DNA from: Microgenomates group bacterium
Lineage (GTDB): Bacteria > Patescibacteriota > Microgenomatia > PFEM01 > JBNASD01
Length of the DNA: 64,000 nt
Direction of reading: 5' to 3'
Assembly (NCBI GenBank): GCA_049720225.1
Contig: JBNASD010000001.1
Span: forward strand, 228,733-292,732
Numbering within the stretch: position 1 is the first letter of the stretch; each line of letters starts with the position of its first letter. The translations under genes and the position numbers were made by a program. This document shows, in pieces, positions 388-56,260 of the stretch. The notes beneath the pieces are model-generated. The model had not been told where the DNA came from, did no database searches, and was given only the letters and a program-made list of their open reading frames with translations.

Positions 388-1418
388 TTTAACTTATATT
401 GAAAATTAATTTTTTTAATAGCTTTTGCATAAATATTATTTTTATACCAATCAACTAAGCGAATTAAAATAAAGGGAGGAGTAATTACTGCCAAAATTGC
501 GCATCCCCAAAAAATGGGAGAAAAAATATTTTCCGGTCGGTATTTTAAAAGATAATAAATTTCCCTTAGGGTATACAAATAATTATGCCGGGAATAGTTT
601 TTAATCTGAAATAACCCCACATAATTAGTGGCTACAAAATCTTTAATCATTTTTTTTCTAAAATCATTATATTTTTTTTCTTTATAAACATTGTTAAACA
701 TATCTATCCAACTTTTTATTGGCGATTTATCATAAATCCAGGATACTTTTCTTGCTTGGCTACTGGTAATTCTTACTGCTACTAAATAATCTCTTAAAAA
801 AACCACGGGGTGTTTTTTAAAAATTGAAGCAAATGGATAAACATGACAAGGAAAAATATCTTCATGAAAGGGAATATCCATATATTTCCTTCTGAAAGCC
901 AAACCAGAAAGTTGATCTAAAGTACTAAACATAGTAATAATTTCTTCAATTGGAGAATCAATTGTTAAAATTATATCTTCTTTTTCGCTCAATCTTTTTT
1001 TAATTCTTACTGGTTTTTCTGGCTTTTCATAAAACCAAAAGTAAGGTCTAGTAACTGCTCCAATTTCTTCGGATATTTGAAAAGCCTGATATGTTTTTAA
1101 TAAAGCATCTTTTGCCAAAATATCATCTTGTCCCATAAGATAAATAATATCACCCTTTGCTTTCTTTCTTAATTTTTCTAAATTTTTTGAATATCCTAAA
1201 TTTTTTTTATTTAAAAAAAGCTTAATTCTTCTGTCTTTTTTTTGAAATTCCTTTATCACTTTTATTGTATTGTCAGTGGAACAATCATTACTAATAATAA
1301 GTTCAAAATTATCAAAACTTTGAGAAAGAATGCTTTTTAAAGTAGGAGAAATTACTTTTTCTCCATTATAAACTGGCATTAAAATGCTAAATTTTAAATT
1401 AAACTTTTTTTTACCCAT
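384..1418 (-). CDS. Family 2 glycosyltransferase (GT-A fold).
   Basis: The N-terminus FSILMPVYNGEKVISPTLKSILSQSF...ELIISNDCSTDNT is a classic GT2 Rossmann-like nucleotide-sugar-binding region, with the DxD region at GQDD. Confidence 0.85.
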   Translation of the reverse strand: MGKKKFNLKFSILMPVYNGEKVISPTLKSILSQSFDNFELIISNDCSTDNTIKVIKEFQKKDRRIKLFLNKKNLGYSKNLEKLRKKAKGDIIYLMGQDDILAKDALLKTYQAFQISEEIGAVTRPYFWFYEKPEKPVRIKKRLSEKEDIILTIDSPIEEIITMFSTLDQLSGLAFRRKYMDIPFHEDIFPCHVYPFASIFKKHPVVFLRDYLVAVRITSSQARKVSWIYDKSPIKSWIDMFNNVYKEKKYNDFRKKMIKDFVATNYVGLFQIKNYSRHNYLYTLREIYYLLKYRPENIFSPIFWGCAILAVITPPFILIRLVDWYKNNIYAKAIKKINFQYKLK

Positions 1419-2295
1419 TTTTTTTAAAAATTTTAATAAAATAATAACTTCCCCCCACTAATCCTCTCAAAAACCACATTCCTAAAGCTAAAATTGGATG
1501 TTTTATTAAATTTTTCCATTTTCCATTTTCCATAAACACCCCAAAATAACGATACCAAAAACCAAATTGTTTACGAATATCTAAATCTTTTTCTCCCCAT
1601 TTTTTAATATAATTTTTCGCTGTAATTGCATATTTTCTTTTTTTACTTAGGTATTTTTTAAGAGTTAAGTTTTCTTCATGATGATATATTTTATTTTTAG
1701 TAATTGTAATTTTCGCTTCCAGGGATTTAATCTTTTTATTAAAATCCCAATCATCAAATCCAAAGGCAATATTTTTTTCATCAAATCCTCCTACTTTTAG
1801 AAATATACTTTTTTTAATAGCTCTTACCGCATCAATGCAAGTTTGATTATAAAAGCTTCTTTCAAAATCTCTAATTTTACCAAATATTCCTCTCCCAATA
1901 ACTCTTTCTGGAATAAATAAAGCATCAAATTTTTTTTCTCTAATTAATTCAACTATTTCTTCTATTAATTTTTTATCAAAAGTCATATCGGCATCAGGAA
2001 AAAATATTATTTCTCCTCTACTTTTCTTCACACCAAAATTTAATTGAGCCCCCCGGAAATTAATTATTTTTTTCTTTTTAACATCACTCTCAGAAGGATA
2101 ATTATAGACTTTCAAAGTATATTTTTTTGCAACTTCCTTAGTTTTATCCTCAGAATTATTATCTACTACAATAATTTCTATTTTTTGAGAAGGATAACTT
2201 TGGGCTTTAATACTTTCCAAGCAATTACCAATATTTTTTTCTTCGTTTTTGGTAGTAATTACTACAGAAACTAATGGTAAGTTTTTATTTTTCAT
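1411..2295 (-). CDS. Family 2 glycosyltransferase.
   Basis: VSVVITTKNEEKNIGNCLESIKAQSYP...EIIVVDNNSEDKTKEV and FFPDADM (DxD) match the GT2 family. Confidence 0.8.
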   Translation of the reverse strand: MKNKNLPLVSVVITTKNEEKNIGNCLESIKAQSYPSQKIEIIVVDNNSEDKTKEVAKKYTLKVYNYPSESDVKKKKIINFRGAQLNFGVKKSRGEIIFFPDADMTFDKKLIEEIVELIREKKFDALFIPERVIGRGIFGKIRDFERSFYNQTCIDAVRAIKKSIFLKVGGFDEKNIAFGFDDWDFNKKIKSLEAKITITKNKIYHHEENLTLKKYLSKKRKYAITAKNYIKKWGEKDLDIRKQFGFWYRYFGVFMENGKWKNLIKHPILALGMWFLRGLVGGSYYFIKIFKKNG

Positions 2296-3821
2296 TTAAA
2301 ATCTCTTCTTTTACTTAACCATTTCCATCCTAACCAAGCATAATATTTTGTTTTTTCCCAATCGGTTAGCGCTTCTTTGGTTTTTCGCCATAAAAATTGA
2401 GGGGTTAAAAAGGAGCTATAAATTTTTCTTACCAACTCCATCAATTCTTCATCTTTCATTGGAGTTTTCATTACTGGTTCTTTCATATCATATCTATCCC
2501 AATCCAAAGTTTTTAACCAACCATTTTTTTTACATTCTTCAAAAAGAGGTGTTCCTGGATAAGGAATCACCAACGTAGCTTGAAGAGTATCTACCAATCC
2601 TTTTTTAAAAAACTCCCGCGCCATATTTAAAGTTCGCAGGGCATCTTTCTTGGTCTCCCAAGGATAACCAACCATTACCGTAATATGAGGCCATAAACCG
2701 GCTTTTTTGGCCATTTTTAAATTTTCTTCAATTTGCTCAACTTTTAAATTTTTATTTATTTTATCAAGCGTTTTCTGGTTGGCGGATTCTAACCCATAAA
2801 GCAAAAAACGAAATCCTGCTTTTGCCATTAAATTATAATCTTTTTGTGTCAAACCGCTATTAAATCGCATATTACAATCAATTTTTATTTTTTTATTATA
2901 TCCTCGCTTAATCATTCCTTCACAAAATTCTTTTAACCAATCACCAACCGGAAAACTCCCACTATCATCCATAATTTCTTTAATTGGCCAGTTTTCTAAA
3001 ATATAGCCAATTTCATCCAAAGCTCTTTTGGGTGACATTACTCGATAACAACTACCGGGATATAAAGTAGTCCAACTACAAAAAGAGCATCTCCCCCACC
3101 AACAATCTCTTCCAAACATCGTATAAGTACCTGGAGTTCGGGAATAATTACTGTTTTTGTAAGCATAAAGTTGCCAACCAGTTAATTCTCGATCAACAAA
3201 CGGTAAAGTATCTAAGTTATGGTTAAGTTTAAAATTTCCTGTAGATTGCCAACTTTGAGATTTAAGTTGGAGTTTTGCGTTTTGCGCTTTACACTTTAAC
3301 TTTTTTCTATACCAAATTCCCGGTTCTAATTTTTCTCCTTCGGTTAGATGTTTAACTAAATTAAGCATCAAAAAATCATAATCCCCTCCCGTCAAAACAA
3401 AATCCACCGGCGAATTTTGTAAACTTTCTTCCGGCAAAGCGGTTACGTGATCTCCAACCAACGCAATCTTTAATTTTGAGTTTTTAGCTTTAAGTTTTGA
3501 AATAATCTTCCAATGCTTTTTAACAACCGGCGTTTTTGTTTCTATTATTAATAAATCGGGCTTTTCTTTTTTAAAATCTCCAAACCATTCCTTAAAAGTT
3601 TGCCCTTTGGCAATTCCATCTAACCAAACAACTTCAAAACCTGCTTTTTTAAGCATCGTCGCTCCATAAGCAGGAACCACCGGATAAGCGGTCCAAGGAG
3701 CGGTGGCCCACTGAAATTGGCGATTTTGCCCTAAAAACGGAATTCCTTTAGGAGAATCAAGCGGTGGATAACCAATGACTATTTTCATTGAAAATATTGT
3801 ATCATAATAATTAAGAAACAA
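2292..3821 (-). CDS. B12-binding-domain / radical SAM protein (class-B-like) with a non-canonical cysteine spacing.
   Basis: The N-terminal region has flavodoxin-like B12-binding features (LLIIETKTPVV, KIALVGDHVTA). The Cys cluster is DCWWGRCSFCSW, which is Cx4Cx2C rather than CxxxCxxC. The downstream region (SPKRALDEIGYI...IKIDCNMRFN...LYGLESANQKTLDKINKN) is a radical SAM TIM-barrel. Confidence 0.7.
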   Translation of the reverse strand: MFLNYYDTIFSMKIVIGYPPLDSPKGIPFLGQNRQFQWATAPWTAYPVVPAYGATMLKKAGFEVVWLDGIAKGQTFKEWFGDFKKEKPDLLIIETKTPVVKKHWKIISKLKAKNSKLKIALVGDHVTALPEESLQNSPVDFVLTGGDYDFLMLNLVKHLTEGEKLEPGIWYRKKLKCKAQNAKLQLKSQSWQSTGNFKLNHNLDTLPFVDRELTGWQLYAYKNSNYSRTPGTYTMFGRDCWWGRCSFCSWTTLYPGSCYRVMSPKRALDEIGYILENWPIKEIMDDSGSFPVGDWLKEFCEGMIKRGYNKKIKIDCNMRFNSGLTQKDYNLMAKAGFRFLLYGLESANQKTLDKINKNLKVEQIEENLKMAKKAGLWPHITVMVGYPWETKKDALRTLNMAREFFKKGLVDTLQATLVIPYPGTPLFEECKKNGWLKTLDWDRYDMKEPVMKTPMKDEELMELVRKIYSSFLTPQFLWRKTKEALTDWEKTKYYAWLGWKWLSKRRDFK

Positions 3822-3857: not shown

Positions 3858-5696
3858 ATGGCACTAACCAGAAAACAAAAAAAAGAATTAAAAAAACTAG
3901 TTAAAACAAAAACACTAAAAGAGACGGTAGAAATTCTTAATATTGACGAAAAAGAGGCTAAAAATTATCTTTTGGATATCTGGGGAAAGGAAAAATATCA
4001 GAAAAGAGTAAAGGAAAATTTAGTTGTTCACTCTTTATCAAAATCAAAATTAATCCTTCCTGAAAGTTTTAAATTTAAAGAGTGGTTAAAGATTAATAAG
4101 AAAATTTTATTTTTTCTTTTTTTTCTGGTTTTAGCGACCTACGCTGTAGCTCTACCTAATGAATTTATTTCTGATGATCTTCCTGCTATTGTCGAAAATC
4201 CTAAAATTTCTAATTTTAGTTACTTTTTTAGTTCTCAGTTTCCTTTATATTTTAATCTTCGTAATTTTTTATATTTTTTAATTAATAAAATTTTTGGTCT
4301 TAATCCAATTCCCTTCCGGTTAATAAACATTTTTTTTCATTTAGGAACAGTTTTTTTAATTTATCTTCTCCTTCATTTCTTCTTTCCCTCTCCTCTTCCT
4401 TTCTTTACCGCCAGTCTTTTTGCGGTTCATCCTATTTTAATAGAGGCAGTTACTTGGATTTCCGGCGGTCCTTATTCCCAAGCAGGCTTTTTTATTCTCC
4501 TTTCTCTGCTTTTTTGGATTTTTTTAACTAAAACTCAACAAAAAAAATTCCTTTTTTATTCACTAATTTCTTTTTTATTGGCCCTCAATACTTCAGAGAG
4601 AGTAATTTGGTTTTTGGCAGTTATTTTTCTTTATGAAATCTTTTTTGGAAAAATCAAAAATCACCTCAAATATCTTTTTCCTTACTTTATCTTAGTGGTT
4701 TTTTGGATAGTTTATATTTTTAAACTCGCCAGTCAACGATTGGTCGCCTTAGAAACAGTTTATTACCAAGAACCAGGATTAGATAATCCCTTAATTAAAA
4801 TTCCTATTGCGATTACCTCTTATCTAGAATTAATCTTTTGGCCGCAAAAACTTACTTTTTATCATTCGGAACTTAATTTTAGTCTTCAAGAGTTTTATTT
4901 TCGTTGTTTTATTTTTCTACTATTATTATCCCTTATTGGTTGGTTTTTAAAAAGGGATCGCCGAATCGCTTTTTGGTTTATATTTTTTATCCTTACTCTT
5001 TCTCCCACTCTCACTCCCTTACGAATCTCTTGGGTGGTAGCAGAAAGATATGTATACCTAGGAACAGTAGGAGTTTTGATTTTTATCGCCTTTTTAATTC
5101 AAAAAATTGGAGAAAAACTTAAAAACCAAAAGATCTCTTGGGGAATACTAGTCATTATTCTAATTACCTTAAGTATTCGCACTGTCTTTCGCAATTTAGA
5201 TTGGCGTAATCAAGACATTTTATGGTTTGCAACTGCCAAATATTCTCCTTCCTCTCACCAAAATCACAATAATTTAGGAAATACATATGCCCGTCGCGGT
5301 GATTATCAAAAAGCACTTGAAGAGTTTCAAACCGCTATTAAACTTAAACCAAACTACGCCGATGCTTACCACAATTTAGCCAACACTTACCATCAAATTG
5401 GTAAAGATGACTTAGCAGAAGAAAATTACAAAAAAGCTTTAGAAATTAATCCTAACCTTTGGCAAACTCATCAAAACTTAGCAGCATTGTATTTTTTAAA
5501 AAAAGATTATTTATCGGCAGAAAATCATCTTCAACAAGCCATAAAAATTAATCCCAAAAATCCGGAACTTTACATTAACTTAGGAATTCTTTACTCCCAA
5601 ATGGGTGATAAACAAAAAGCCCATGAAGCTTTCCAAAAAGCTCTGACCTTAGATCCCCAAAATCAAACAATCAAACAATTTTTATTAAATCTATAA
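3858..5696 (+). CDS. TMTC-like multi-pass membrane protein with C-terminal TPR repeats; putative GT-C fold O-glycosyltransferase.
   Basis: A K-rich cytoplasmic N-terminus of about 90 aa contains an HTH-like stretch TLKETVEILNIDEKEAKNYL. It is followed by about 10 predicted TM helices. The C-terminus has at least five TPR-like repeats (NLGNTYARRGDYQKALEEFQTAIKLKPNYADAYHNLANTYHQIG...). This is the membrane-domain-plus-TPR architecture of TMTC/DUF1736 proteins. Confidence 0.65.
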   Translation: MALTRKQKKELKKLVKTKTLKETVEILNIDEKEAKNYLLDIWGKEKYQKRVKENLVVHSLSKSKLILPESFKFKEWLKINKKILFFLFFLVLATYAVALPNEFISDDLPAIVENPKISNFSYFFSSQFPLYFNLRNFLYFLINKIFGLNPIPFRLINIFFHLGTVFLIYLLLHFFFPSPLPFFTASLFAVHPILIEAVTWISGGPYSQAGFFILLSLLFWIFLTKTQQKKFLFYSLISFLLALNTSERVIWFLAVIFLYEIFFGKIKNHLKYLFPYFILVVFWIVYIFKLASQRLVALETVYYQEPGLDNPLIKIPIAITSYLELIFWPQKLTFYHSELNFSLQEFYFRCFIFLLLLSLIGWFLKRDRRIAFWFIFFILTLSPTLTPLRISWVVAERYVYLGTVGVLIFIAFLIQKIGEKLKNQKISWGILVIILITLSIRTVFRNLDWRNQDILWFATAKYSPSSHQNHNNLGNTYARRGDYQKALEEFQTAIKLKPNYADAYHNLANTYHQIGKDDLAEENYKKALEINPNLWQTHQNLAALYFLKKDYLSAENHLQQAIKINPKNPELYINLGILYSQMGDKQKAHEAFQKALTLDPQNQTIKQFLLNL

Positions 5697-5704
5697 CCCT
5701 CGAA

Positions 5705-6790
5705 TCATTTTCTACTTCTTAAAATAAAAAATTTACCCTTTTTAGTAGTTCTTTCTCCAATCACTTCACAAAAACCAAAAGCTTCTTTTAAAATCTCTAA
5801 AAAAATATTTTTATATCCTTCTCCCACTACTAAAAAAATTTCTCCTCCCTTTTTAATCTTTTTTTTAACATCTCTAAATAAAAATGAAAGATCTTCTCTT
5901 TTTTTATGAAAGGGGGGATTAGATAGAACTAGATCAAATTCTTCAGAGGGAACACTTTCAATTCCCAAATAAAGCTTTGTTCTATTAAGAAGTCCAAAGT
6001 TTCTAACATTTTCTTCTGAAATTAAAATTGCACTTCTACTAACATCAACCATCGATATTTCTGCTTCTTCATTAATAAAACCAGCTACTACCCCAATTAC
6101 TCCCCATCCACATCCTAAATCAAGGATTTTTTCCGCCCTGCGAATTTTTCCTTCTGTTTCTTCCAATAAAAATCTCGTCCCTTCATCTAATTCCTGCCAA
6201 GAGAAAAGCCCTGGTAAACTCCTCATCTCAAAACTTCTGCCAAATAAATTAAATCTAACTAAAGTAGGTTGTTTTTCTTGAACTTCATTATTTCTTTTTA
6301 TTGCCCTCAAAATTCTGTATCCTCCCCTTCCTTTAGCTATAATTTCCATTTCTCCTAAAACTTTTTTTATTACCTCTCCTTGCCCCTCAAGACCCCAATT
6401 TTTATGAGTAATCACATAAATAACTCCTCCTTCTCTTAAATAATTAGCTAATCTTCTTAACCAATAATCAAAAGTTTCTTGAGACATAAAATTACTTAAA
6501 GAAAGAAGCGCTCCATCAAACTTTTCGGATGCAGGCAGTTTAGTTAATAAATCTACATTTCCAATTGGAATATCACTATCCATTACGCTATCGATTTCTT
6601 TTTCTTCCTCTAAATTATCTTGATAAACACAAAAAGCAACATTAGGTATTGCTCCTAAAAAATTTAAAAAAGCCTTTTTATTCGGATTTAAAATTAAAAC
6701 ACGACTTCCTTTCTCAAACTCAATATCAGCGAGAAGCGGAAAATATTTCAGCTCATCTTTTCGTGATAATCGTAAAGGAGAATTAATCAT
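5705..6790 (-). CDS. rsmC: RsmC/RlmG-like rRNA (guanine-N2-) methyltransferase, with a two-lobed methyltransferase architecture.
   Basis: The C-terminal catalytic lobe has ILDLGCGWGVIGV (motif I) and DLVLSNPPFH (the NPPF/H N-methyltransferase motif). A non-catalytic methyltransferase-like lobe sits at the N-terminus. The 361-aa length fits RsmC. Confidence 0.6.
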   Translation of the reverse strand: MINSPLRLSRKDELKYFPLLADIEFEKGSRVLILNPNKKAFLNFLGAIPNVAFCVYQDNLEEEKEIDSVMDSDIPIGNVDLLTKLPASEKFDGALLSLSNFMSQETFDYWLRRLANYLREGGVIYVITHKNWGLEGQGEVIKKVLGEMEIIAKGRGGYRILRAIKRNNEVQEKQPTLVRFNLFGRSFEMRSLPGLFSWQELDEGTRFLLEETEGKIRRAEKILDLGCGWGVIGVVAGFINEEAEISMVDVSRSAILISEENVRNFGLLNRTKLYLGIESVPSEEFDLVLSNPPFHKKREDLSFLFRDVKKKIKKGGEIFLVVGEGYKNIFLEILKEAFGFCEVIGERTTKKGKFFILRSRK

Positions 6791-6892
6791 TTCTTTTTCC
6801 TTTTTTTTGTCCCAAAATTATCATATTAGGATTAGTTATTAAAAACTTAAGGGTGTTTAATAATATTTTTTTTCTATCTAGTAAAAAATTCT

Positions 6893-7240
6893 TTAAACAA
6901 TAAAAAATCTTTCTTTATTTTTTTTATTTTTATTAAATTTATTAAAAATAACTCTTTCATCAAAAATATCTAAAACTTTAAACCTCGCTTTTTCTAGAAG
7001 AAAAATTATTGATTTCTTCGCAAAAAAGGTAATATGTCCTTCATTTTTAAGAAATGGGTTATAATTCCGACAAGTTATTGAGGCTAATCCCCCAACATCT
7101 CCAGTATCAATCAAAATAATTCCCTCCGGCAAAAGCTTTTCAAAGGTAACAAATCATCACTTATCAAATTTAGCGCTTTAAAAATGTTCTCTTTTCTTGT
7201 TTTTTCTTTAACTAAAGCAACCTTACCTGCCATATTTTGA
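6893..7240 (-). pseudogene. Apparent frameshifted gene remnant, made of two short ORFs in different frames.
   Basis: The 5' piece MAGKVALVKEKTRKENIFKALNLISDDLLPLKSF ends at a stop near 7139. It is followed in another frame by LPEGIILIDTGDVGGLASITCRNYNPFLKNEGH... (track ORF 6893..7132). The two pieces would be contiguous without the frame shift and loosely resemble the N-terminus of a DUF362-type protein. Non-coding AT-rich sequence flanks them. Confidence 0.3.
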
Positions 7241-8263
7241 TTTTAAATTAGGGGTAAAAAATCCTTTAAGAAATAAAATTCCGTAAACTAAATGGGTAAT
7301 AAAAATTGCGGGAATCACCAAGAAAGCTACTTTCCAATTTCTTTCTTGACGATAAACATCCCAAGCAGTAAAAAGTAAAGCAAGTAAATAAAAACTAATT
7401 ACTCCCCAATAAAACCAATTTAATAAATTACTTAAAAAATAAAATTCTAATTTTTTCGCGAAAAAGATTATAATTGGTCCACCTATTAATCCTAAAACAA
7501 AAAAGGTAGGCAATAAATATCCCAACCGAAATGAAGTTTTAGGAATGACTCGAGCAAAATATCCTCGATGGAGAGCATAACGAGAAATTTGCCGTAAATG
7601 AGGCCTAAAAATTTCTCGCCGATGATGATAGACCAAAACAGTGGGGTCGTAAATTATTTTTTTTCCTAATTTATATACTAAATCATGACACAATTTCGTA
7701 TCTTCTCCTGGCCAAAAAGAAGAATTAAATCCTCCTACTTGAAAGAAGTCTTTTTTTCTTACCAATAAATTGACGCTCGGATAATCATCAACTTCTCGAC
7801 GTGATTTAATTGCACACCGATAATTTCCTGCTCCCCCACTTCCTAAAAAAGTTGACCAAACATAGCCTGAAGTTTTTTGGAGAATATTATCTTGAGGAGG
7901 AGTAATTGCCGGACCACAAACGCCAACAATTAGTGATGGATTAAATTTTTTAAGATTAAAAATTTTTAAGGCATTTTTTAACCAATCTTTAACTGGATAA
8001 GAATCATCATCTAAAAAGGCTAAAATCTCTCCTTTTGCCTTTTTAGCTCCTAAATCTCGCTTATCTGCTGGTCCTATTTTTGGCCAAGAGGGAATAATTT
8101 TAATCCTTTTATCAGAAAATTTTTCTTTTGTTTTTTTGTCAGGAAGAATAATTACCTCAAATTTTTTTTCACTTTGAGATAAAATTGCCGGAATTGTTTC
8201 TTTTCTTAAATAATCATTAATCTCTTTTACCGGAATAATAATGGAAAACAAAACTTTTTTCAT
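7223..8263 (-). CDS. Family 2 glycosyltransferase with a C-terminal multi-TM domain.
   Basis: FSIIIPVKEINDYLRKETIPAILSQ...EVIILPD and AFLDDDSYP (DxD) match GT2. The last roughly 110 aa are hydrophobic (three or four helices). Confidence 0.8.
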   Translation of the reverse strand: MKKVLFSIIIPVKEINDYLRKETIPAILSQSEKKFEVIILPDKKTKEKFSDKRIKIIPSWPKIGPADKRDLGAKKAKGEILAFLDDDSYPVKDWLKNALKIFNLKKFNPSLIVGVCGPAITPPQDNILQKTSGYVWSTFLGSGGAGNYRCAIKSRREVDDYPSVNLLVRKKDFFQVGGFNSSFWPGEDTKLCHDLVYKLGKKIIYDPTVLVYHHRREIFRPHLRQISRYALHRGYFARVIPKTSFRLGYLLPTFFVLGLIGGPIIIFFAKKLEFYFLSNLLNWFYWGVISFYLLALLFTAWDVYRQERNWKVAFLVIPAIFITHLVYGILFLKGFFTPNLKSKYGR

Positions 8264-9192
8264 AAAATTCTGGCAAAATAATTAATAGTTCTTTTTAAAC
8301 CTTCTTCTAATTTAATTTTTGGTTCCCAACCTAATTTTTCTTTAGCTAAACTAATGTCTGGCCGTCTTTGTTTTGGATCATCTTTTGGTAACGGTAAAAA
8401 TACAATTTTTGATTTACTTTTAGTAATTTTTAAAACTAATTTTGCTAACTGCAAAACCGTAAATTCTCCTGGATTTCCTAAATTAATCGGCCCATTTTCA
8501 TTACTTATCATCATTTTTATCAAACCATCAATTAAATCATCAATATAACAAAAAGAGCGAGTTTGACTCCCATCACCATAAACTGTTAAAGGCTCCCCTT
8601 TTAAGGCCTGAACAATAAAATTAGAAACTACCCGACCATCATCCGGTCGCATTCTTGGTCCGTAGGTATTAAAAATTCTGACAATTTTTGTCTCTAAGCC
8701 AAATTTTTTCCGGTAATTTTCTATTAAGCTTTCGGCAAATCTTTTTCCTTCATCATAACAACTCCGCGGACCAATAGGATTGACATTTCCCCAATAAGAT
8801 TCTTTTTGAGGATGAACTAGAGGATCACCATAAACCTCGGAAGTAGAAGTATGTAAAAATTTAGCTTTTTTTTCTCTCGCTAAATCAAGCATATTTTTCA
8901 CTCCATAAGAACTTACTAACAAAGTTTCAATGGGAAATTGAGAATAATCAGGAGGAGAGGCAGGACAAGCTAAATTCCAAATTTCTTCAATTTTCTCTTT
9001 GATTTTTAAAGGCTTAATGATATCGTGATAAATAAAATCAAAATTTTTATATTTTTTAAGTTCTTCTATATTCTTTTTCTGTCCGCTAATAAAATTATCT
9101 ACCCCAATTACTTTAATTTTTAACTTAAGTAATTTTAAACATAAATTAGAACCGATAAAACCGGCGGCGCCGGTAACTAAAGCAGTTTTCAT
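8260..9192 (-). CDS. uxs: UDP-glucuronate decarboxylase (UDP-xylose synthase, UXS-type SDR).
   Basis: ALVTGAAGFIGSNLC is the Rossmann GxxGxxG region. LACPASPPDYSQFPIETL, TSTSEVYGDPLVHPQKESYWGNVNPIGPRSCYDEGKR and IFNTYGPRMRPDDGRVVSNFIVQALKGEPLTVYGDGSQTRSF are near-diagnostic UXS/ArnA-C-domain motifs. Confidence 0.85.
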   Translation of the reverse strand: MKTALVTGAAGFIGSNLCLKLLKLKIKVIGVDNFISGQKKNIEELKKYKNFDFIYHDIIKPLKIKEKIEEIWNLACPASPPDYSQFPIETLLVSSYGVKNMLDLAREKKAKFLHTSTSEVYGDPLVHPQKESYWGNVNPIGPRSCYDEGKRFAESLIENYRKKFGLETKIVRIFNTYGPRMRPDDGRVVSNFIVQALKGEPLTVYGDGSQTRSFCYIDDLIDGLIKMMISNENGPINLGNPGEFTVLQLAKLVLKITKSKSKIVFLPLPKDDPKQRRPDISLAKEKLGWEPKIKLEEGLKRTINYFARIL

Positions 9193-9989
9193 CCGATATT
9201 AACTTTAAAATTTAACTCGGGGTCCCAACGCCATTTTCTTTTGTTTTTATCATCATAATAATGCAAAATATGAAGGCGATAAAAAACTGCTAAAGTGTCT
9301 ATCAGCATTTCCCAAACGGTTTTAAATTTAATCGTGCTGGTAAATTTAAATTGCTCTGGATTTATCTTTATTGGCGCCTCATAAATTTTTTTAAAACCTA
9401 ATCGGCGAGCTACTGCTAATAGTTCCACATCAAAAGCAAATTTTTTTACTAATAATCGCGGCAACACCTTTTCCAAAACCTCTCTTTTAAAAATTTTTAA
9501 ACCAGTTTGGGTATCTTTCACTTTTAATCCAAAAAGAAACCAAATTAACATCTGATAACCAAAACTATAAATTTTTCTTAAAAAGGGATATTCCACTTGA
9601 GAAGCAGGATGACGCTTAGAACCAACAATAATATCTGCTCCATACCATTCCATATGTTCCAAAATCATCGCTAAACCATTAGGGTCAATATCCATTCCCG
9701 CGTCAATAAAAGCAATTAAATCTCCTTTCGTTCTTGCCATTCCATATCGAACTGCATACCCTTTTCCTCTATTAGTTTTGTAACCAACTACCTTAATTTT
9801 TTTTCCTTGAAGTTTTTTTGCTTTTTGATAAGTTTTATCAATCATCCCATCAACAACAATAATCAGTTCATAATCATAACGCATTTTTTCTAATACCCTC
9901 TTAATTTGTTTAATATCCTCCACAATCGTTTTCTCTTGTTTATAAGCAGGAACAACCACCGAAAGAAAATGAGAATTATCTTTTCTCAT
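9189..9989 (-). CDS. GT2 polyprenyl-phosphate glycosyltransferase (Dpm1/ArnC-like).
   Basis: LSVVVPAYKQEKTI...ELIIVVDGMIDKT, AFIDAGMD, and the KVKDTQTGLKIFKREVLEKV (..DTQ.G.K) loop are typical of Dpm1/ArnC/GtrB enzymes. There is a 4-nt overlap with uxs downstream. Confidence 0.8.
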   Translation of the reverse strand: MRKDNSHFLSVVVPAYKQEKTIVEDIKQIKRVLEKMRYDYELIIVVDGMIDKTYQKAKKLQGKKIKVVGYKTNRGKGYAVRYGMARTKGDLIAFIDAGMDIDPNGLAMILEHMEWYGADIIVGSKRHPASQVEYPFLRKIYSFGYQMLIWFLFGLKVKDTQTGLKIFKREVLEKVLPRLLVKKFAFDVELLAVARRLGFKKIYEAPIKINPEQFKFTSTIKFKTVWEMLIDTLAVFYRLHILHYYDDKNKRKWRWDPELNFKVNIG

Positions 9990-11217
9990 TTTTAAATAAA
10001 AATATCATTAAAATTAAAAAAAGTAAAACAGAAATTAAAAGAGAAATTCTTATTACCTCCATTAAAGAAGAATGAAATAAATTAATTAAAATTATTTGAA
10101 GAATTGCTCCTCCCAAACACCACAAAACTACTTTTGTTTTTCCTACAGAAAGAAAAAAATTAATTAATAAATTATTTAAAGAATAAAAACTAATAAAAAC
10201 TGCAAAGGCTCCTAAGTAAGGTACTGCTGAAAGATAAGAATTTCCATACAAAAGACGAACCATTAAAGTGGGAAAAAGGAAATAAACCAAAGTAATAAAA
10301 ATTGACTCTCCACCGACAATTAATAATGACTGATTCAATAAATGCCGATAACTTTTACCATTTTCAAATCTTTCCGAAACTAAAGGAAACATTACTGCGG
10401 GAATTACTCCTGAGGCAAAAAAAACAATTTTTCCCAAAACAGATACCGCGGAATATATTCCTGCCTCCATCGCCGAAAAAAAATGTTTTACCAATATCAC
10501 GTCTGACGAATAAAAACTGGTTAAAGAAAGCATCGCTATTAACACCGGAAAACTAAATCCAAAAAATTCTTTCTTGTTAATTTTTTCTATTTTATCTTGA
10601 TATCGCCATAAAAATTTCAAAGGAAAGAAAGAAATTAAAAAATAAACTAAAGAAGCAATTACTATCCCTCCCAATGCCCCATTAATACCAAAACCTCTTT
10701 TAACTAAAAAAACTACCAAGATGAGTTTTAAAATCGTCGTTAAAACACTATTAAAAGATAAAAATCCAAATTTTAAAAAAGCACGCAAAATCCCATCGTT
10801 TATAAAAGAAACTAAACTAATCATCAACCAAAAACTTAAAATTATTAAAGGAAAGGAATCTTCTAAGTTTAAAAAATAAGAAATTTTTTCTTTTAAAATA
10901 ATAATTAAAATCATTAAAAAGATTCCAATAAAACCAAAAATTTTAAAAAGGTTTAAAAATAATCCTAAAATTTTTCCAAAATCTTTTTTAACTTTATATT
11001 TAGTAACAAACTTTACGGTTGTGGTTAAAAAAGTTCCGGCAATAATGGAAAAAAAGTAAGTTAAAGAAATTAAGGCGGTTAAACTTCCATAATCTTTTGG
11101 TCCTAACATCCTTCCCATTAAAAGATGATATAAATAATTTCCAAAATTAGTGACCATCGTTCCTAAAAACAAAACAGCACTTCCGCTAATTAAGGGGTTT
11201 TGGAAAATTTTTTTCAT
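9976..11217 (-). CDS. Wzx/MurJ-superfamily (MOP) lipid-linked oligosaccharide flippase, polysaccharide biosynthesis protein family.
   Basis: It has about 12 TM helices, and the N-terminus reads LISGSAVLFLGTMVTNFGNYLYHLLMGRMLGPKDYGSLTAL. Topology and motifs match Polysacc_synt/Wzx proteins. Confidence 0.6.
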   Translation of the reverse strand: MKKIFQNPLISGSAVLFLGTMVTNFGNYLYHLLMGRMLGPKDYGSLTALISLTYFFSIIAGTFLTTTVKFVTKYKVKKDFGKILGLFLNLFKIFGFIGIFLMILIIILKEKISYFLNLEDSFPLIILSFWLMISLVSFINDGILRAFLKFGFLSFNSVLTTILKLILVVFLVKRGFGINGALGGIVIASLVYFLISFFPLKFLWRYQDKIEKINKKEFFGFSFPVLIAMLSLTSFYSSDVILVKHFFSAMEAGIYSAVSVLGKIVFFASGVIPAVMFPLVSERFENGKSYRHLLNQSLLIVGGESIFITLVYFLFPTLMVRLLYGNSYLSAVPYLGAFAVFISFYSLNNLLINFFLSVGKTKVVLWCLGGAILQIILINLFHSSLMEVIRISLLISVLLFLILMIFLFKNEKR

Positions 11218-11218
11218 T

Positions 11219-12343
11219 TTAAGCTAACCAATAACCTCGGGAAAAGAAAATTAAACTGATAACCAGTAAAATCAAGCTAAAAATTAAATAAAAAATTTTA
11301 AATCTTTGATACTTTTCCAAAATAAATCCCAAAGACAAGAAAGCAGGAAAAACTACCAAAACATACCTAGGTAAGGAAGAAAAAGTACCAGTTAAGGTTG
11401 GCAAAATATAAGCCAAAAATCCAAAAACCAGATAAGACAACCTAATTTTTTTAAGATATCCATAAACCAAAAGACCCAAAAAGCTAATTGCTACCAATAA
11501 TTCCAACCAAACAACAAAATATAGAGGATCAATTTTTGTCGTTAAAATCATCTTAAAATAGCGCCAAAAAACTTGATATAAAAGAATTATTTTCCCTCCG
11601 CTTCTTTGGGCTCCAAAATGAGGCTGAACATGGATAAAAAGCAAAGGGTCTCCATAATGAACTAATAAATATCGCATATAAAAAATTAACCCTAAAGGAA
11701 TTAAAAAAAGAAAAATTAAATTTAAAATCTTAAATTTAAAATTTAAAATCTTTTTGTCCTCCCACCATTCAATTAATAAAGCAGGCAGAAGAAATATTCC
11801 TACTATCCGTGTGGCGCTGGCAAAAGCTCCAAAAACTCCTCCCAACCACCATTTTTTAATTCTTATAAAATAAAAGGCGCCTAAAACAAAAAATAAAAAT
11901 AATGATTCCGTATAGACGGAAACAAAATAAAAGGAAGCGGGAAAGAGCAAAAGACCAATAATTACCAATTTTATAAATTTCGGGGAGTAATCTAAGGTAA
12001 GCAATTTATAAAGAAAAACCAAAGCGCCTAAAAAAGCCAAATGAGAAATTAAAAGACCAGAAACTAAATAATTATGAATAAAGTTACTTAACCACCGAAT
12101 TAAAAAAGGATAAAAAGGAAAAAATGCTTGTTGATATAATCCATAGCCATTTTGAGCAATGTTTAAATAATAAACTCCATCAAAATTAGCCCAAACTGAA
12201 GGTCCCAAATAATCTAATTTTTCAGGAAGAATTTTTTTACCTAGAAAAACTACCAATTCCAACCCAATCCGCCAAATAACAAAAATTTTAAACATCCAGC
12301 GAAAAATTTGCTGATTATTTTCTTTGAAGGTAGACTTTTTCAT
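11219..12343 (-). CDS. PIG-V/DUF2029-like GT-C membrane glycosyltransferase (putative mannosyltransferase).
   Basis: WANFDGVYYLNIAQNGYGLYQQAFFPFYPFLIRWL resembles the conserved first loop of the PIG-V/GT76 and bacterial GT87-like families. The protein is polytopic. It is a paralogue of 47221..48303 (shared KKWWLGGVFGAFA / KKWWLAGLFGALA). Confidence 0.5.
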   Translation of the reverse strand: MKKSTFKENNQQIFRWMFKIFVIWRIGLELVVFLGKKILPEKLDYLGPSVWANFDGVYYLNIAQNGYGLYQQAFFPFYPFLIRWLSNFIHNYLVSGLLISHLAFLGALVFLYKLLTLDYSPKFIKLVIIGLLLFPASFYFVSVYTESLFLFFVLGAFYFIRIKKWWLGGVFGAFASATRIVGIFLLPALLIEWWEDKKILNFKFKILNLIFLFLIPLGLIFYMRYLLVHYGDPLLFIHVQPHFGAQRSGGKIILLYQVFWRYFKMILTTKIDPLYFVVWLELLVAISFLGLLVYGYLKKIRLSYLVFGFLAYILPTLTGTFSSLPRYVLVVFPAFLSLGFILEKYQRFKIFYLIFSLILLVISLIFFSRGYWLA

Positions 12344-13382
12344 AAACTTCTACTGTTTTTAAAGCAGTTTTTTCCCAACTAAAATTCTTAACCCATTCTA
12401 ATCCATTTTTTATCAAATTATTTCTCTTTTTTTCATCTTTAATTATCCTTACTAAAGCCTGAGTTATATTTTTTATGTTATAAGGATCAAATAAAATAGC
12501 AGATTTTCCACAAATTTCTGGTAAACTTGAGGTATTGGCGCTTATTACCGGACATCCACAAGCCATCGCCTCTAAAACCGGTAAACCAAATCCTTCGGAA
12601 AAAGATGGTTGGCAATAAACACTTGCTAAATTATAAATCACTACCAAATCTTCTGTTGGTACATAGCCTAAAATTTTAATTTTATTAATTAAATTAAGTT
12701 CTTTAATTAATTGGATTATCTCTTTTGTTTCTTTTAATTCTTTATCTTCAAACGCCTTTCCTACCAAAACTAAATTGTAAATTGAAAATTGGGAATTGAA
12801 AATTTTAAAAGCTTTTATTAAACCAATTACATTCTTATTCCAATTTACATCGCCAACATAAAGAATAAATTTATCTGGCAATTGATACTTTTGTTTAATT
12901 TTTAATTTTTCGCTTTTACCTTTCACTAACTTAAATTCTTCTCCTGCGGCTAAAGGAACTACATAAATTTTTTCTTTAGGATATCCTGTTAACTTTGGAA
13001 TTTCTTCTTGCCAATAATAACTATCAGTAATCACCCCATCAATCTTTTTAAGCCGCCATTTTTGAACTTCCCAACGAATTCTTCCTTTAACTCCTGGAGT
13101 AAAATTTTCCATAAATTTCACAGGAATTAAATCATGAATGGTTACTATACTTTTAGTTAATTTTTTTGTTGGTAAAGTAAGAAAAAAGGGAGAAAAATAA
13201 GGGTAATGAATAATATCTGCCTCGACAAAAACTAATTTATCAGCTGATTTTAAAAATTCTAATTCTATTCCTTTCTTAGGAGCTATTTTTTTCAAAGCCT
13301 CTATTAAACGTTTTGTATAAAAACCAATTCCCCGAAATTGATGGGCAGAATAAAGAGGGGTCAAATCAATCACTACTTTCAT
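12315..13382 (-). CDS. Family 4 glycosyltransferase (GT-B, retaining).
   Basis: The C-terminal domain has SFSEGFGLPVLEAMACGCPVISANTSSLPEI, the EX7E-type GT4 motif. Confidence 0.85.
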   Translation of the reverse strand: MKVVIDLTPLYSAHQFRGIGFYTKRLIEALKKIAPKKGIELEFLKSADKLVFVEADIIHYPYFSPFFLTLPTKKLTKSIVTIHDLIPVKFMENFTPGVKGRIRWEVQKWRLKKIDGVITDSYYWQEEIPKLTGYPKEKIYVVPLAAGEEFKLVKGKSEKLKIKQKYQLPDKFILYVGDVNWNKNVIGLIKAFKIFNSQFSIYNLVLVGKAFEDKELKETKEIIQLIKELNLINKIKILGYVPTEDLVVIYNLASVYCQPSFSEGFGLPVLEAMACGCPVISANTSSLPEICGKSAILFDPYNIKNITQALVRIIKDEKKRNNLIKNGLEWVKNFSWEKTALKTVEVYEKVYLQRK

Positions 13383-13387
13383 TTTTT

Positions 13388-14152
13388 TTATTCTATCAGT
13401 TTTTTTACTGCTTTAAAAATACCGGTTGAATACTGAAACGCTTTTTTAGGTCGAAAAGTAATTTCTTCTGGTAACCCTAAAAATTCTCCATATTTTCTTA
13501 AAATATACTTCTCTTTTCCGTTCTTAATTTTTAAATTAGCAGGAATTTTAAGACAAAAGTCAATAAAATTCTTCTCTATAAAAGGATAAATAATTTTAAT
13601 TCCCTCCTTTTCTGATAATATCTTTTCTCTTTTTACATCTTTTTTTAACAACGTTAACTCATTTTTAATAGTCTGATTTAGCTCTCCTAACTTTATTTTT
13701 TTATAACGATGGTAACCCCCCAACAAAATATCTGGACCTTGTCCAGAAAATAAAATTTCTACTCTTCTTTTTTTAGTTTCCTCCAGACATAATAAAAAAC
13801 AAACTCCTAAAGATAAATGAGTTAAATCTATAGAAAAATTCCTCTTTTTATAAATTTTTATTACTTTAAAGATAGCTTTCTTAATTTTTTTTGAATCATA
13901 ATTAACTCTAATAATTTTCTTTTTTAAAAATTTCTCTAAAATATCCAAAAAAATCCAATCTTTACTCGTCTTACAAGCGACACTCAAAAAAACACAATTG
14001 GGAAAAGTTTTTCTTACCCACCAAGCAATTATCGAAGAATCAATGCCTCCAGAAACTAAAACTCCAACAACTTTTTTGTGATATTTTTTTTTATATTTTT
14101 CAAAACTTTCTTTAAGAATAAAATCAATTTTCTCCAAAATTTTTTTATTCAT
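13388..14152 (-). CDS. Standalone asparagine-synthetase-type PP-loop ATP-pyrophosphatase (amidotransferase synthetase domain only).
   Basis: VGVLVSGGIDSSIIA is the SGGxDS PP-loop. SGQGPDILLGGYHRY corresponds to AsnB GEGADELFGGY, and LRKYGEFLGLPEEITFRPKKAFQ is AsnB-C-like. No glutaminase domain is present, so the enzyme is presumably ammonia-dependent. Confidence 0.6.
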   Translation of the reverse strand: MNKKILEKIDFILKESFEKYKKKYHKKVVGVLVSGGIDSSIIAWWVRKTFPNCVFLSVACKTSKDWIFLDILEKFLKKKIIRVNYDSKKIKKAIFKVIKIYKKRNFSIDLTHLSLGVCFLLCLEETKKRRVEILFSGQGPDILLGGYHRYKKIKLGELNQTIKNELTLLKKDVKREKILSEKEGIKIIYPFIEKNFIDFCLKIPANLKIKNGKEKYILRKYGEFLGLPEEITFRPKKAFQYSTGIFKAVKKLIE

Positions 14153-14178
14153 TATCTCATTAATTATATAATATCTTT

Positions 14179-15849
14179 ATGTTTTATCCGGAAAATTTTC
14201 CTAAAGAAAAAGAAAATGAATTAATAAATTTTTTAAAAGAAACAGAGAAATATTGGCTTAAGAAAAAACCAATTACATATTCTGAGTTTAAAAAATATTT
14301 TTTTCAAATTTTAAAGAATGGTAGATTTTCTTTTTCTAATCCTCCACCTTTTTGGTGGTTAAATTTTATTCTTCTTCGCCACCAAAATATATTTTCTGAA
14401 GATTTTGTTAATTTTTTAAAAAAATATCTTATAAAAACCAAAACTCGTTCTATATCAGGAATCATCCCTGTAGCTATCTTTACAAAACCAGTTGGCTGTC
14501 CTTTCCATTGCGTATATTGTCCAGAAAATAAAACTCTCCCCAAAAGTTATTTAAAAGATGAGCCAGCTTTAAGAAGAGCTATAAGAGAAAAGTTTGATCC
14601 CTATTTTCAAACTCGCAATCGTTTAATTACTCTCCTTTTATCGGGTCATAAAATTGATAAGGTAGAAATTATTATCAAAGGAGGAACTTTTTCCTTCTAT
14701 TCTAAAAAATACCGTCAAAAATTTATAAAAGAAATTTTTGACGCAGCTAATACCGATATTCTGCAACTTATTAAGACAGGAGAGGAAAAAATTTTTAAAA
14801 GTAAGACACTTTCTCAAGCCCAAAAAATTAACGAAAAAGGGTTTTGTCGCATTATAGGAATAAATATTGAAACCCGAACAGATTTTATCAATCCTCAAGA
14901 AATTAAATTTTTAAGAAAATTAGGAGTAACTCATGTAGAATTAGGAATCCAAATCCTTAATGATAAAATTTTAGAGAAAATTAATCGCCAACAAAATATT
15001 AACCAAATAATCAAGGCAACTTTTCTTTTAAAAGAATCAGGATTTAAAATTTCTTATCATTTAATGCCAAATTTGCCTTTTTCTTCTCCTCAAAAAGACT
15101 TAGAAACATTCAAAAAAGTTTTTACTCCTAAATTTTCTCCCGATCATTTAAAAATTTATCCAACAGTAGTCCTTAAAAATTCCCAAATTTATCAATGGTT
15201 AAGAAAAAAATTTTATCGACCTTATTCTCTTGATCAATTAATTAACTTATTAATAAAAGTTAAAACAGAAATTATTCCTCCTTGGGTAAGAATTAGTCGA
15301 TTAGGAAGAGATATTAGTGAAAAAGAAATTATTGCCCCAAAAATTCCTTCAAATTTAAGAGAAATTGTTTTGAGAAAAATAAAATTATTAGGAAAGTTTT
15401 GTCAATGTATCCGTTGTCGAGAAATAAAAAACCAACCATGGAAAGGAAAACCTAAATTAAGAATTTTTCAATATCAAGCTTCTGAGGGAAAAGAATTTTT
15501 TTTGGAGTTTGTAGATCAAGAAAATCATTGTTTAGGATTTTTAAGATTAAGAATTCCCGCCTATCTTATTTATCCCGATAGTTATCTACCATTATTTTCA
15601 TCTTTAAAAAATGCCGCTCTTATTCGTGAACTTCATGTCTACGGGCCAGCTCTTTCTTTAAAAGAGAAAGATTCTATCGCTACTCAACATAAAAATTTAG
15701 GAAAAAAATTACTTAATAAAGCGGAAAAAATTACTCAAAAATTAAAAATAAAAAAAATTGCTATTATCGCAGGAATTGGCGTTCGTGATTATTACCGAAA
15801 ATTAGGATATTGTCTTAAAGAAACCTATATGATAAAAAATCTTAATTAA
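14179..15849 (+). CDS. elp3: Elp3-family radical SAM / GNAT protein (tRNA uridine-34 carboxymethylation enzyme homologue).
   Basis: SGIIPVAIFTKPVGCPFHCVYCP...SYLKDEPALRRAI...FDPYFQTRNRLITLLLSGHKIDKVEIIIKGGTFS matches the Elp3 radical SAM core. The C-terminus IRELHVYGPAL...QHKNLGKKLL...IIAGIGVRDYYRKLGY is the Elp3 KAT/GNAT domain. Confidence 0.85.
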   Translation: MFYPENFPKEKENELINFLKETEKYWLKKKPITYSEFKKYFFQILKNGRFSFSNPPPFWWLNFILLRHQNIFSEDFVNFLKKYLIKTKTRSISGIIPVAIFTKPVGCPFHCVYCPENKTLPKSYLKDEPALRRAIREKFDPYFQTRNRLITLLLSGHKIDKVEIIIKGGTFSFYSKKYRQKFIKEIFDAANTDILQLIKTGEEKIFKSKTLSQAQKINEKGFCRIIGINIETRTDFINPQEIKFLRKLGVTHVELGIQILNDKILEKINRQQNINQIIKATFLLKESGFKISYHLMPNLPFSSPQKDLETFKKVFTPKFSPDHLKIYPTVVLKNSQIYQWLRKKFYRPYSLDQLINLLIKVKTEIIPPWVRISRLGRDISEKEIIAPKIPSNLREIVLRKIKLLGKFCQCIRCREIKNQPWKGKPKLRIFQYQASEGKEFFLEFVDQENHCLGFLRLRIPAYLIYPDSYLPLFSSLKNAALIRELHVYGPALSLKEKDSIATQHKNLGKKLLNKAEKITQKLKIKKIAIIAGIGVRDYYRKLGYCLKETYMIKNLN

Positions 15850-47186: not shown

Positions 47187-47206
47187 AAATAAATTCAATT
47201 ATGCTA
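47181..47206. promoter_or_regulatory. Perfect 8-bp inverted repeat TAGCATAA-N10-TTATGCTA in the divergent control region between the GT-C gene (minus) and the PIG-V-like gene (plus). Candidate operator.
   Basis: tagcataaataaattcaattatgcta reads directly. It lies 15 nt upstream of the 47221 ATG and overlaps the possible 5' end of the minus-strand gene. Confidence 0.35.
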
Positions 47207-49777: not shown

Positions 49778-49778
49778 T

Positions 49779-56214: not shown

Positions 56215-56260
56215 CTTAAGCTTATATTTTAGCACAATTTTGCTAAAATATTTATTAATT

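Follow-up and report, generated by a model that had tools for sequence, protein, structure and literature searches.

A facultative UDP-xylose synthase gene within a predicted cell-surface glycan module of Microgenomates and related bacteria

Genomic context of the UXS gene

A stretch of 64,000 nucleotides from contig JBNASD010000001.1 (hereafter the window), belonging to a Microgenomates genome of the candidate phyla radiation (CPR; Patescibacteria), was analyzed with emphasis on a gene encoding a UDP-glucuronate decarboxylase, that is, a UDP-xylose synthase (UXS), and on the two family 2 glycosyltransferase (GT2) genes that flank it, termed GT2-A and GT2-B. CPR bacteria are uncultured epibionts and their surface chemistry is almost unknown. 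The window has a G+C content of about 29% and carries almost all of its genes on the minus strand. The three genes are joined by two 4-nt ATGA stop/start overlaps, one at the GT2-A/UXS junction ('...ggATGAaaact', 9189-9192) and the other at the UXS/GT2-B junction ('...tttATGAaaaaa', 8260-8263). They belong to a co-directional array that runs in the order AsnB-like protein, GT4, PIG-V-like glycosyltransferase of the GT-C fold (GT-C), MOP flippase, GT2-A, UXS and GT2-B, and that is followed 3' of GT2-B by a GT-C with a TPR tail, a B12-binding radical SAM enzyme and two GT2s (Table 1). Scanning of positions 6600..14400 for promoters and terminators returned the same counts as shuffled sequences, and no operon boundaries were obtained.

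A preliminary description of this DNA had read the arrangement, by analogy with the Arn pathway, as a route in which UDP-xylose is loaded onto a polyprenyl phosphate by GT2-A for the use of GT-C enzymes. The three open reading frames (ORFs) and both overlaps that it listed are all present on the minus strand, and the membrane anchoring that it ascribed to GT2-B agrees with three C-terminal transmembrane (TM) segments predicted here.

Identity of the UXS and supply of its substrate

The decarboxylase is a short-chain dehydrogenase/reductase (SDR) and its class was assigned by comparison with the PDB, because the NCBIfam set holds no UXS-specific model; all NCBIfam matches of the protein lie below cutoff. 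Human UXS1 (4gll, 2b69) was the best match, with 375 bits end to end at about 57% identity, against 142 bits for the next family (the UDP-Glc/UDP-GlcA 4-epimerases 4zrm and 6zl6), 91 bits for UAXS (6h0p) and about 70 bits for ArnA. The NAD-binding motif GAAGFIGS at residue 8 (GxxGxxG) and the catalytic motifs TSTSEVYG at 115 (T117/E119, the T-x-E element), YDEGKR at 146 (Y146/K150, the YxxxK element) and RRPD at 276 (R276/277, the closing Arg) all align with the same motifs of human UXS1. Like UXS1, the protein is a single domain of about 310 aa that matches SDR Pfam families only, and it lacks the N-terminal formyltransferase domain of ArnA. The NCBI name of an identical protein is 'UDP-glucuronic acid decarboxylase family protein'. 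On these sequence grounds the SDR is a genuine UXS, predicted to convert UDP-glucuronic acid (UDP-GlcA) to UDP-xylose (UDP-Xyl). The preliminary description had made the same assignment and had named a grouping with 4-epimerases as the contrary outcome; no such grouping was seen in the PDB comparison.

Bacterial UXS examples are found in Bacteroides and Sinorhizobium. No material difference in sequence separates the UXS of the window from known ones, and what is unusual is its placement in a CPR glycan module, away from ugd. The ugd gene, already named in the preliminary description, is present 43 kb from UXS, where its product would feed UDP-GlcA to the latter; it scores above the TIGR03026 cutoff and is TuaD-like. 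The further claim that an ArnB-like aminotransferase and a formyltransferase are missing is borne out among the window ORFs of at least 150 aa, in which neither domain was found.

Predicted structures of GT2-A and GT2-B

The sequence matches of GT2-A in the PDB (phmmer) were PfDPMS (64 bits), GtrB (40 bits) and ArnC (38 bits). Its AlphaFold2 (AF2) model (pLDDT 84.4, pTM 0.83) gave 17 top PDB matches in Foldseek that were all ArnC, DPMS or GtrB (E 1e-16 to 1e-11), with query TM-scores (TMq) of 0.61-0.73, or about 0.7, aligned over about 235 of 266 residues; MpgS, GpgS and WrtF came close behind (TMq 0.60-0.67). GtrB (5EKP), ArnC (9BHC, 8VXH) and PfDPMS (5MLZ), the best structural matches, have their GT-A catalytic domain in common with GT2-A. 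Polyprenyl-phosphate glycosyltransferases (PPGTs) of this class are described in the ArnC structure paper as possessing a GT-A domain with a DADLQx motif, two amphipathic juxtamembrane (JM) helices and 2-4 TM helices, together with a C-terminal beta-hairpin in ArnC and GtrB; the second Asp and the Gln of the motif bind the metal and the first Asp is the proposed base.

With reference to these class features, GT2-A presents a mixed picture. Two hydrophobic helices, 136-153 and 222-242 (mean Kyte-Doolittle value 0.94), occupy the JM1 and JM2 positions in the predicted model, and a predicted terminal hairpin at 253-264 (strands 253-256 and 261-264) follows the ArnC topology. Unlike in GtrB, ArnC and PfDPMS, no TM-like segment is predicted, the chain ending 24 residues past the JM2-like helix, and the canonical DADLQ is replaced by a family-invariant D96-(A/S)-G98-M-(E/D)100, in which the first Asp is retained, Gly replaces the second Asp and an acidic residue the Gln, so that the two metal ligands are swapped or lost. 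The first Asp and the aligned Arg residues are conserved. Each of the curated PPGT family models tried (ArnC, PgfS, PpgS, AglJ and Dol-P-hexose transferase) was failed, the best score being 53 bits for PgfS (cutoff 500) and that for ArnC 43.7 bits (cutoff 529).

Judging from the model, GT2-A looks like a monotopic GtrB/ArnC-type enzyme with its TM pair deleted and its metal ligands rearranged. That it works like a PPGT is reasonably supported, and strict membership of the PPGT class is not supported. The Dpm1/ArnC likeness proposed in the preliminary description thus stands for sequence and predicted fold and falls short in TM helices, DADLQ motif and family cutoffs. From fold and genomic context, GT2-A most likely charges polyprenyl phosphate with a sugar for the adjoining GT-C enzymes.

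GT2-B is of another kind. Its AF2 model (pLDDT 91.9), searched as a whole chain, gave Chlorella virus hyaluronan synthase (HAS; TMq 0.60-0.62) and BcsA (0.56-0.59) on top, with no PPGT among the top 50 Foldseek matches. The invariant columns DDD (85-87), GED (186-188) and Q225xxR228Y recall the DDD, GED and QxxR(W/Y)-like motifs of HAS (7SP8) and BcsA (5EJ1), in which a GT-A domain is likewise followed by interface and TM helices. In contrast to these synthases, GT2-B has only three TM helices in 346 aa, too few alone for a translocation channel, and the final Trp of QxxRW is a Tyr. As modelled, it resembles a small synthase-like membrane GT2 of the hyaluronan/cellulose-synthase kind and not an ArnC-like enzyme.

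Distribution of UXS around GT2-A orthologues

About 60 related loci (numbered with the prefix L) were compared overall, and UXS was scored as present within flanks of 9-10 kb. The module was found in Microgenomates, Shapirobacteria, WWE3 and related CPR bacteria, with GT2-A 57-88% identical to that of the window, and at least 120 GT2-A family clusters, all at least 64% identical, occur among the matches listed. At least seven further CPR loci also have GT2-A followed by UXS, and the presence of this arrangement in the window is therefore not due to chance.

A scan of species-representative genomes with GT2-A gave 45 loci (57-82% identical), in which the next gene is GT2-B directly in 37 and after a small insert in two, UXS in two (L022 and L023), a contig end in two and another gene in two. 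Downstream sequence of at least 9 kb was available for 20 of these loci, and only one of them, L023, has any UXS. Four more contigs carry the core of flippase, GT2-A and GT2-B, with the B12-binding radical SAM gene next in three of them and UXS in none. In a GT2-A tree of 54 sequences the eight UXS-linked copies do not form a clade; they are scattered, each with an unlinked sister, and none of them resembles another linked copy more closely than it does some unlinked one. GT2-A of the window, for instance, is 82% identical to that of L008, which is unlinked, as against 71% to that of UXS-linked L057.

Residues diagnostic for UXS-linked GT2-A were sought and none emerged: the best columns were conservative I/V/L or R/H exchanges (0.88 vs 0.20) and are explained by phylogeny. 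Besides UXS itself, no gene family in the flanks co-varied with UXS as a candidate xylosyltransferase; the association of the PIG-V-like GT-C with UXS presence (p ~0.01, uncorrected) is phylogenetically confounded.

The closest relatives of the window by GT2-A are L140 (88%), L141 (83%) and L008 (82%), and each has a small unrelated ORF where the window has UXS. L140, whose GT2-B is 80% identical, is syntenic with the window gene for gene and is its closest relative on a long contig. The junction ORFs are small, four-helix and of 23S_rRNA_IVP/bAvd type (L008 2191..2562; L140 8844..9221, 125 aa; L141 10856..11125), and further ORFs of this type lie in the clusters of L053 (4511..4855) and L140 (14822..15202). 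bAvd-like proteins are known to accompany diversity-generating retroelements.

Many of the species-representative metagenome-assembled genomes that bear the module (L009-L012, L015, L017, L018, L021, L023-L025 and others) carry the title 'uncultured Gammaproteobacteria bacterium' (binchicken, SRP co-assemblies), and in one case the title is 'Clostridia bacterium'. To judge by their genes, and by proteins 60-74% identical to those of Microgenomates and Shapirobacteria, these titles appear to be placeholders or wrong taxonomy.

Two lineages of UXS in two positions

The UXS tree comprises two lineages, of which lineage A is monophyletic and holds the window UXS and all cases placed after GT2-A. 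The nearest relatives of the window UXS (71-73% identical; L053, L054, L055/56 and L057) all directly follow a GT2-A orthologue, and in L055/56 and L057 the GT2-A-UXS pair is kept with no GT2-B after it. In the one Shapirobacteria lineage represented by L055 (3034..4191) and L056 (4678..5835), an MFS transporter gene on the opposite strand stands after UXS in place of GT2-B, and beyond it lies a different set of GT4, SDR and GT2 genes; what follows UXS in the module can therefore be exchanged. At 69-70% identity UXS appears in other contexts, with ugd, NTP-transferase, PGM and UXS in succession in L138 and a GT2 followed by UXS in L139.

Lineage B consists of the UXS of L139, L140, L092 and L128; identities are 73-81% within this group and 56-68% to lineage A. 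In L139 and L140 the lineage-B UXS overlaps a GT2 that is 46-47% identical to GT2_1411 of the window, and in L092 and L128 UXS follows the B12-binding radical SAM gene. The L140 UXS is 64% identical to that of the window and lies 7.4 kb downstream, directly after the GT2_1411 orthologue, so that two close relatives, the window and L140, carry different UXS lineages. The GT2_1411 family occurs with and without UXS and is a candidate alternative user of UDP-Xyl. Two UXS lineages at two positions imply that UXS joined the module at least twice. A metagenome scan contributed 80 more distant UXS loci (56-64% identical), which served as outgroup; GT2-A is a neighbour in none of them and ugd is adjacent in about 30.

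Role of UXS in the module

The interpretation that we favor, with moderate confidence, is that UXS is an accessory precursor-supply gene whose UDP-Xyl is used by some glycosyltransferase of the cluster, and not a fixed partner of GT2-A. We take the array to be a cell-surface glycan module that is conserved among Microgenomates, Shapirobacteria, WWE3 and related CPR bacteria, in which, by the most parsimonious route, GT2-A would make the same lipid-phosphate sugar (probably a hexose) in all lineages, while UDP-Xyl would be used directly by a cytoplasmic Leloir glycosyltransferase of the cluster such as GT2-B, GT2_1411 or the GT4. UXS has been recruited at least two times, as lineage A between GT2-A and GT2-B and as lineage B after the B12-binding radical SAM gene or a GT2_1411-family GT2, and this double recruitment argues for a relevance of UDP-xylose to the glycan of the module in some lineages. 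In most species no UXS lies within 9-10 kb of the module, and xylose therefore probably enters the glycan in some lineages and not in others. It can likewise be argued that, since UXS is absent near most GT2-A orthologues and GT2-A remains unchanged, the donor of GT2-A does not depend on UXS. The acceptor and donor sugar of GT2-A, like the user of UDP-Xyl, we infer beside the observed enzyme classes, synteny statistics and UXS lineages; the user is not identified by the adjacency of UXS to GT2-A.

Several observations weigh against this interpretation. In all eight lineage-A loci UXS adjoins the 3' end of GT2-A, in most of them by a stop/start overlap, and the pairing is kept even in the loci that lack GT2-B, as a specific GT2-A/UXS partnership would predict. 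Loci with no UXS in their flanks may have one elsewhere in the genome. As no xylosyltransferase co-varies with UXS, a conserved member of the module such as GT2-A must be considered for that role, and the invariant non-canonical metal motif, as read from the sequence, leaves the GT2-A donor open. In addition, the window yielded no priming phosphoglycosyl transferase, even when eight large ORFs without annotation were scanned against Pfam under relaxed conditions, and a classical undecaprenyl-diphosphate (Und-PP)-oligosaccharide pathway for the Leloir glycosyltransferases is therefore not evident. The eight cases after GT2-A may, for their part, descend from one insertion, and as independent instances they lend a partnership of GT2-A and UXS little weight.

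The strongest competitor, though in itself unlikely, is the model closest to the preliminary description, namely that GT2-A is a dedicated polyprenyl-phosphate xylosyltransferase whose undecaprenyl-phosphate (Und-P)-xylose is flipped and then transferred by the PIG-V-like or the TPR-tailed GT-C. It gains from the PPGT fold with its JM-like helices and C-terminal hairpin, from the ATGA overlap and the retention of the pair in the eight lineage-A loci, two of them devoid of GT2-B, and from the GT-C genes directly upstream; four PPGT-like GT2s against at least ten GT-Cs leave room for several lipid-phosphate sugars, and an unusual donor could lie behind the odd D-A-G-M-(E/D) motif. What tells against it is that no UXS stands at the junction in 37 of 45 loci and none within the flanks in 19 of the 20 long ones, that GT2-A copies at 82-88% identity have no adjacent UXS and no subfamily signature, that all eight adjacent cases belong to one UXS lineage and lineage-B UXS adjoins other genes, and that literature precedent for a lipid-phosphate xylose made from UDP-Xyl was not found. 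The claim that GT2-A loads xylose on polyprenyl phosphate is not supported by adjacency, most orthologues (57-88% identical) having no UXS in their flanks and no residue being diagnostic. Of the preliminary interpretation as a whole, the true UXS, the ArnC/GtrB/DPMS fold, ugd, the many GT-Cs and the recurrent GT2-A-UXS pair are retained, and the step from adjacency to xylose loading is not.

Another possibility, to which we give little credence, is a switch by substrate availability, in which GT2-A is a synthase of polyprenyl-phosphate-glucose type, or of a similar one, with a relaxed donor preference and would form polyprenyl-phosphate xylose, also or instead, when UXS is co-expressed. Xylose is glucose without C6, and a pocket for UDP-Glc can in principle accept it. 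Such a switch, by which gain or loss of UXS would alter the glycan with GT2-A and the GT-C unchanged, would account for the close coupling in lineage A as well as for the absence of a sequence signature in GT2-A. Its logic has a precedent in Citrobacter youngae, where gain or loss of an SDR switches Und-P-ribofuranose (Und-P-Ribf) to Und-P-xylofuranose (Und-P-Xylf) and the GT-C is promiscuous (PMC11127046). It is nonetheless entirely inferential and would leave lineage-B UXS behind other genes unexplained. A broader reading, likewise unlikely, takes GT2-A for a widespread CPR family of TM-less GtrB/ArnC-fold enzymes with a rewired metal site, which in the UXS lineages would, by dedication or by donor promiscuity, convert UDP-Xyl to polyprenyl-phosphate-xylopyranose for PIG-V-like or TPR-tailed GT-Cs.

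Improbable, too, is that GT2-A is no PPGT at all but a peripheral Leloir GT2 extending a lipid-linked or polymer acceptor, its likeness being that of a shared GT-A core, since the missing TM helices, the altered DADLQ, the scores far below the curated cutoffs, the closeness of MpgS, GpgS and WrtF and the adjacent MOP flippase, typical of Und-PP-oligosaccharide pathways, are set against 17 best fold matches that are exclusively PPGTs, two hydrophobic helices and a hairpin in the JM1/JM2/hairpin layout of ArnC and GtrB, the conserved first Asp and aligned Arg, and the want of a priming transferase in the window.

Comparison with known systems and significance

The accessory-supply reading can be placed beside systems in which a lipid-phosphate sugar is made for extracytoplasmic transfer. 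The likeness to the Arn pathway of L-Ara4N lipid A modification (Ugd, ArnA, ArnB, ArnC, ArnD, ArnE/F, ArnT) is that one region encodes Ugd and a decarboxylase for UDP-GlcA together with a GT2 of ArnC fold and GT-Cs of the PMT_2/ArnT family. The analogy drawn in the preliminary description is nevertheless loose: ArnB, ArnD and ArnE/F are lacking and a MOP-type flippase is found instead of ArnE/F; GT2-A has neither TM helices nor DADLQ; and the ArnA-type decarboxylase releases a UDP-4-keto-pentose, whereas the UXS-type enzyme, which has no formyltransferase domain, reduces it to UDP-Xyl. Coupling of decarboxylase and lipid-phosphate glycosyltransferase is moreover obligate in Arn and facultative here, with UXS after GT2-A in 2 of 45 loci.

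GtrA/GtrB/GtrC, CsbB/GtcA/YfhO, Pgf of S. mutans and the C. youngae system follow a common logic of lipid-phosphate-sugar synthase, flippase and GT-C, and in the Pgf and C. youngae systems an SDR of the cluster sets the identity of the sugar. The flippase of the three-component systems is of GtrA type, in contrast to the MOP type here. In C. youngae O2, phosphoribosyl pyrophosphate (PRPP) is converted to Und-P-Ribf by a UbiA-type enzyme, an SDR epimerase yields Und-P-Xylf and a promiscuous GT-C follows (PMC11127046); unlike the route proposed for GT2-A, this one does not proceed from UDP-Xyl via a GT2 (PMC11127046). Its switch of a side-chain sugar by a single SDR is the closest counterpart of what gain or loss of UXS may do in the present module. 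Und-P-Xylf by the PRPP route is also the single documented lipid-phosphate xylose that was found in the literature, which returned no direct report of Und-P-Xyl, Dol-P-Xyl, polyprenyl-phosphate xylose from UDP-Xyl or CPR glycosylation with UDP-xylose.

The window thus displays a deeply conserved, uncharacterised CPR glycan module, composed of a TM-less ArnC-fold GT2, a miniature synthase-like GT2, GT-Cs, a MOP flippase and a B12-radical-SAM enzyme, with a facultative and relocatable UXS. That UXS is gained, lost or moved among close relatives suggests that xylose decorates the surface variably, which may bear on host or phage recognition. Should GT2-A indeed load xylose on lipid, this would constitute a new type of donor for extracytoplasmic glycosylation and the first bacterial lipid-phosphate pentopyranose donor directly from UDP-xylose, and the surface glycan would be switched between variants as UXS is gained, lost or relocated. 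Should it not, the locus would serve as a warning that the neighborhood of genes in an operon does not by itself reveal the substrate of an enzyme.

Other genes of the module and the window

The coordinates of the principal features are collected in Table 1.

Table 1 Features of the glycan module and of the sugar-activation block in the 64,000-nucleotide window
Feature	Coordinates	Strand	Size and basis of assignment
GT2-A	9189..9989	-	266 aa; Pfam Glycos_transf_2 87 bits
UXS (SDR; UDP-glucuronate decarboxylase = UDP-xylose synthase), lineage A	8260..9192	-	310 aa; UXS1 match, catalytic motifs
GT2-B, membrane GT2 with 3 C-terminal TM helices	7223..8263	-	346 aa; Pfam GT2 families, fold, TM segments
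MOP-family (Wzx/Polysacc_synt) flippase-like protein	9976..11217	-	Pfam Polysacc_synt_3 68 bits; synteny
PIG-V-like GT-C candidate, polytopic	11219..12343	-	374 aa; nine TM-like segments
GT4 (GT-B fold) Leloir glycosyltransferase	12315..13382	-	Pfam Glycos_transf_1 138 bits; synteny
TPR-tailed GT-C, opposite strand to module	3858..5696	+	Pfam TPR families and weak PMT_2
B12-binding radical SAM enzyme	2292..3821	-	Pfam Radical_SAM and B12-binding
GT2_1411, GT2 with Glyco_transf_7C tail	1411..2295	-	Pfam
ugd, UDP-glucose 6-dehydrogenase	51904..53196	-	TIGR03026 457 bits (cutoff 190); TuaD-like 436 bits; three UDPG_MGDP_dh domains
Full-length DPMS-like GT2 with GtrA TM domain	49779..50966	-	PfDPMS 165 bits
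Two short TM-less ArnC/Dol-P-hexose-transferase-like GT2s	49052..49777, 48300..49055	-	canonical DAD..Q and DMDQ motifs

The MOP flippase-like gene lies directly 5' of GT2-A and is kept there in one large subclade. The protein of the PIG-V-like gene has no Pfam match of its own; its orthologues (49-59% identical) match PF04188 Mannosyl_trans2 and PMT_2. Orthologues of the TPR-tailed GT-C (41-52% identical) occur in L003, L007, L023, L054, L057 and others. The B12-binding radical SAM gene is located after GT2-B in most loci and is near-universal (about 40 species, 46-71% identical), and this breadth suggests that the glycan or its carrier undergoes a radical modification common to these bacteria. 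A second radical SAM gene of the island, at 14179..15849 (+) and with a Radical_SAM_C domain, is kept in L140 and L141.

The many GT-C enzymes noted in the preliminary description were recovered as seven PMT_2-type genes together with single GT87-like, PIG-V-like and weakly YfhO-like genes. The PMT_2-type genes include tandem paralogues of 500-575 aa, overlapping or abutting, with four at 18193..24836 (-) and two at 44182..47198 (-); the GT87-like gene lies at 29921..31186 and the weak YfhO/PTPS_related match at 41391..43073. Together, the PMT_2 arrays, the GT87-like and the YfhO-like genes are an unusually dense set of lipid-phosphate-sugar-dependent transferases.

A second sugar-activation block at 48300..53196 (-) comprises ugd, a GDP-sugar-type SDR and three Dpm1/ArnC-like GT2s, which bring the PPGT-like enzymes of the window to four including GT2-A; these three GT2s (48300..50966) had been left out of the preliminary description. 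The SDR at 50942..51907 beside ugd was considered as a UDP-GlcA epimerase for lipid-phosphate galacturonic acid and rejected, being of GDP-sugar type (Rmd 2pk3 290 bits, GMD).

Six large ORFs of the island, 374-673 aa long, are without a match in Pfam even at E <=1 (15846..17414, 26530..28524, 28654..29934, 35843..37819, 37882..39903 and 43061..44185) and are candidates for more polytopic transferases or polymerases. A predicted surface protein of 1637 aa with PKD, SpaA/prealbumin-like, SdrD_B, CarboxypepD_reg and DUF11 repeats is encoded at 58959..63872 (-), adjoined by a CAP-domain protein at 57921..58913, and is a possible substrate of the glycosylation machinery. An RNaseH-like ORF at 55723..56289 (-) and an RtcB ORF at 56171..57670 (+) overlap by 119 nt on opposite strands; the Pfam match of RtcB begins only at residue 75, and its true start probably lies downstream of the listed ATG.

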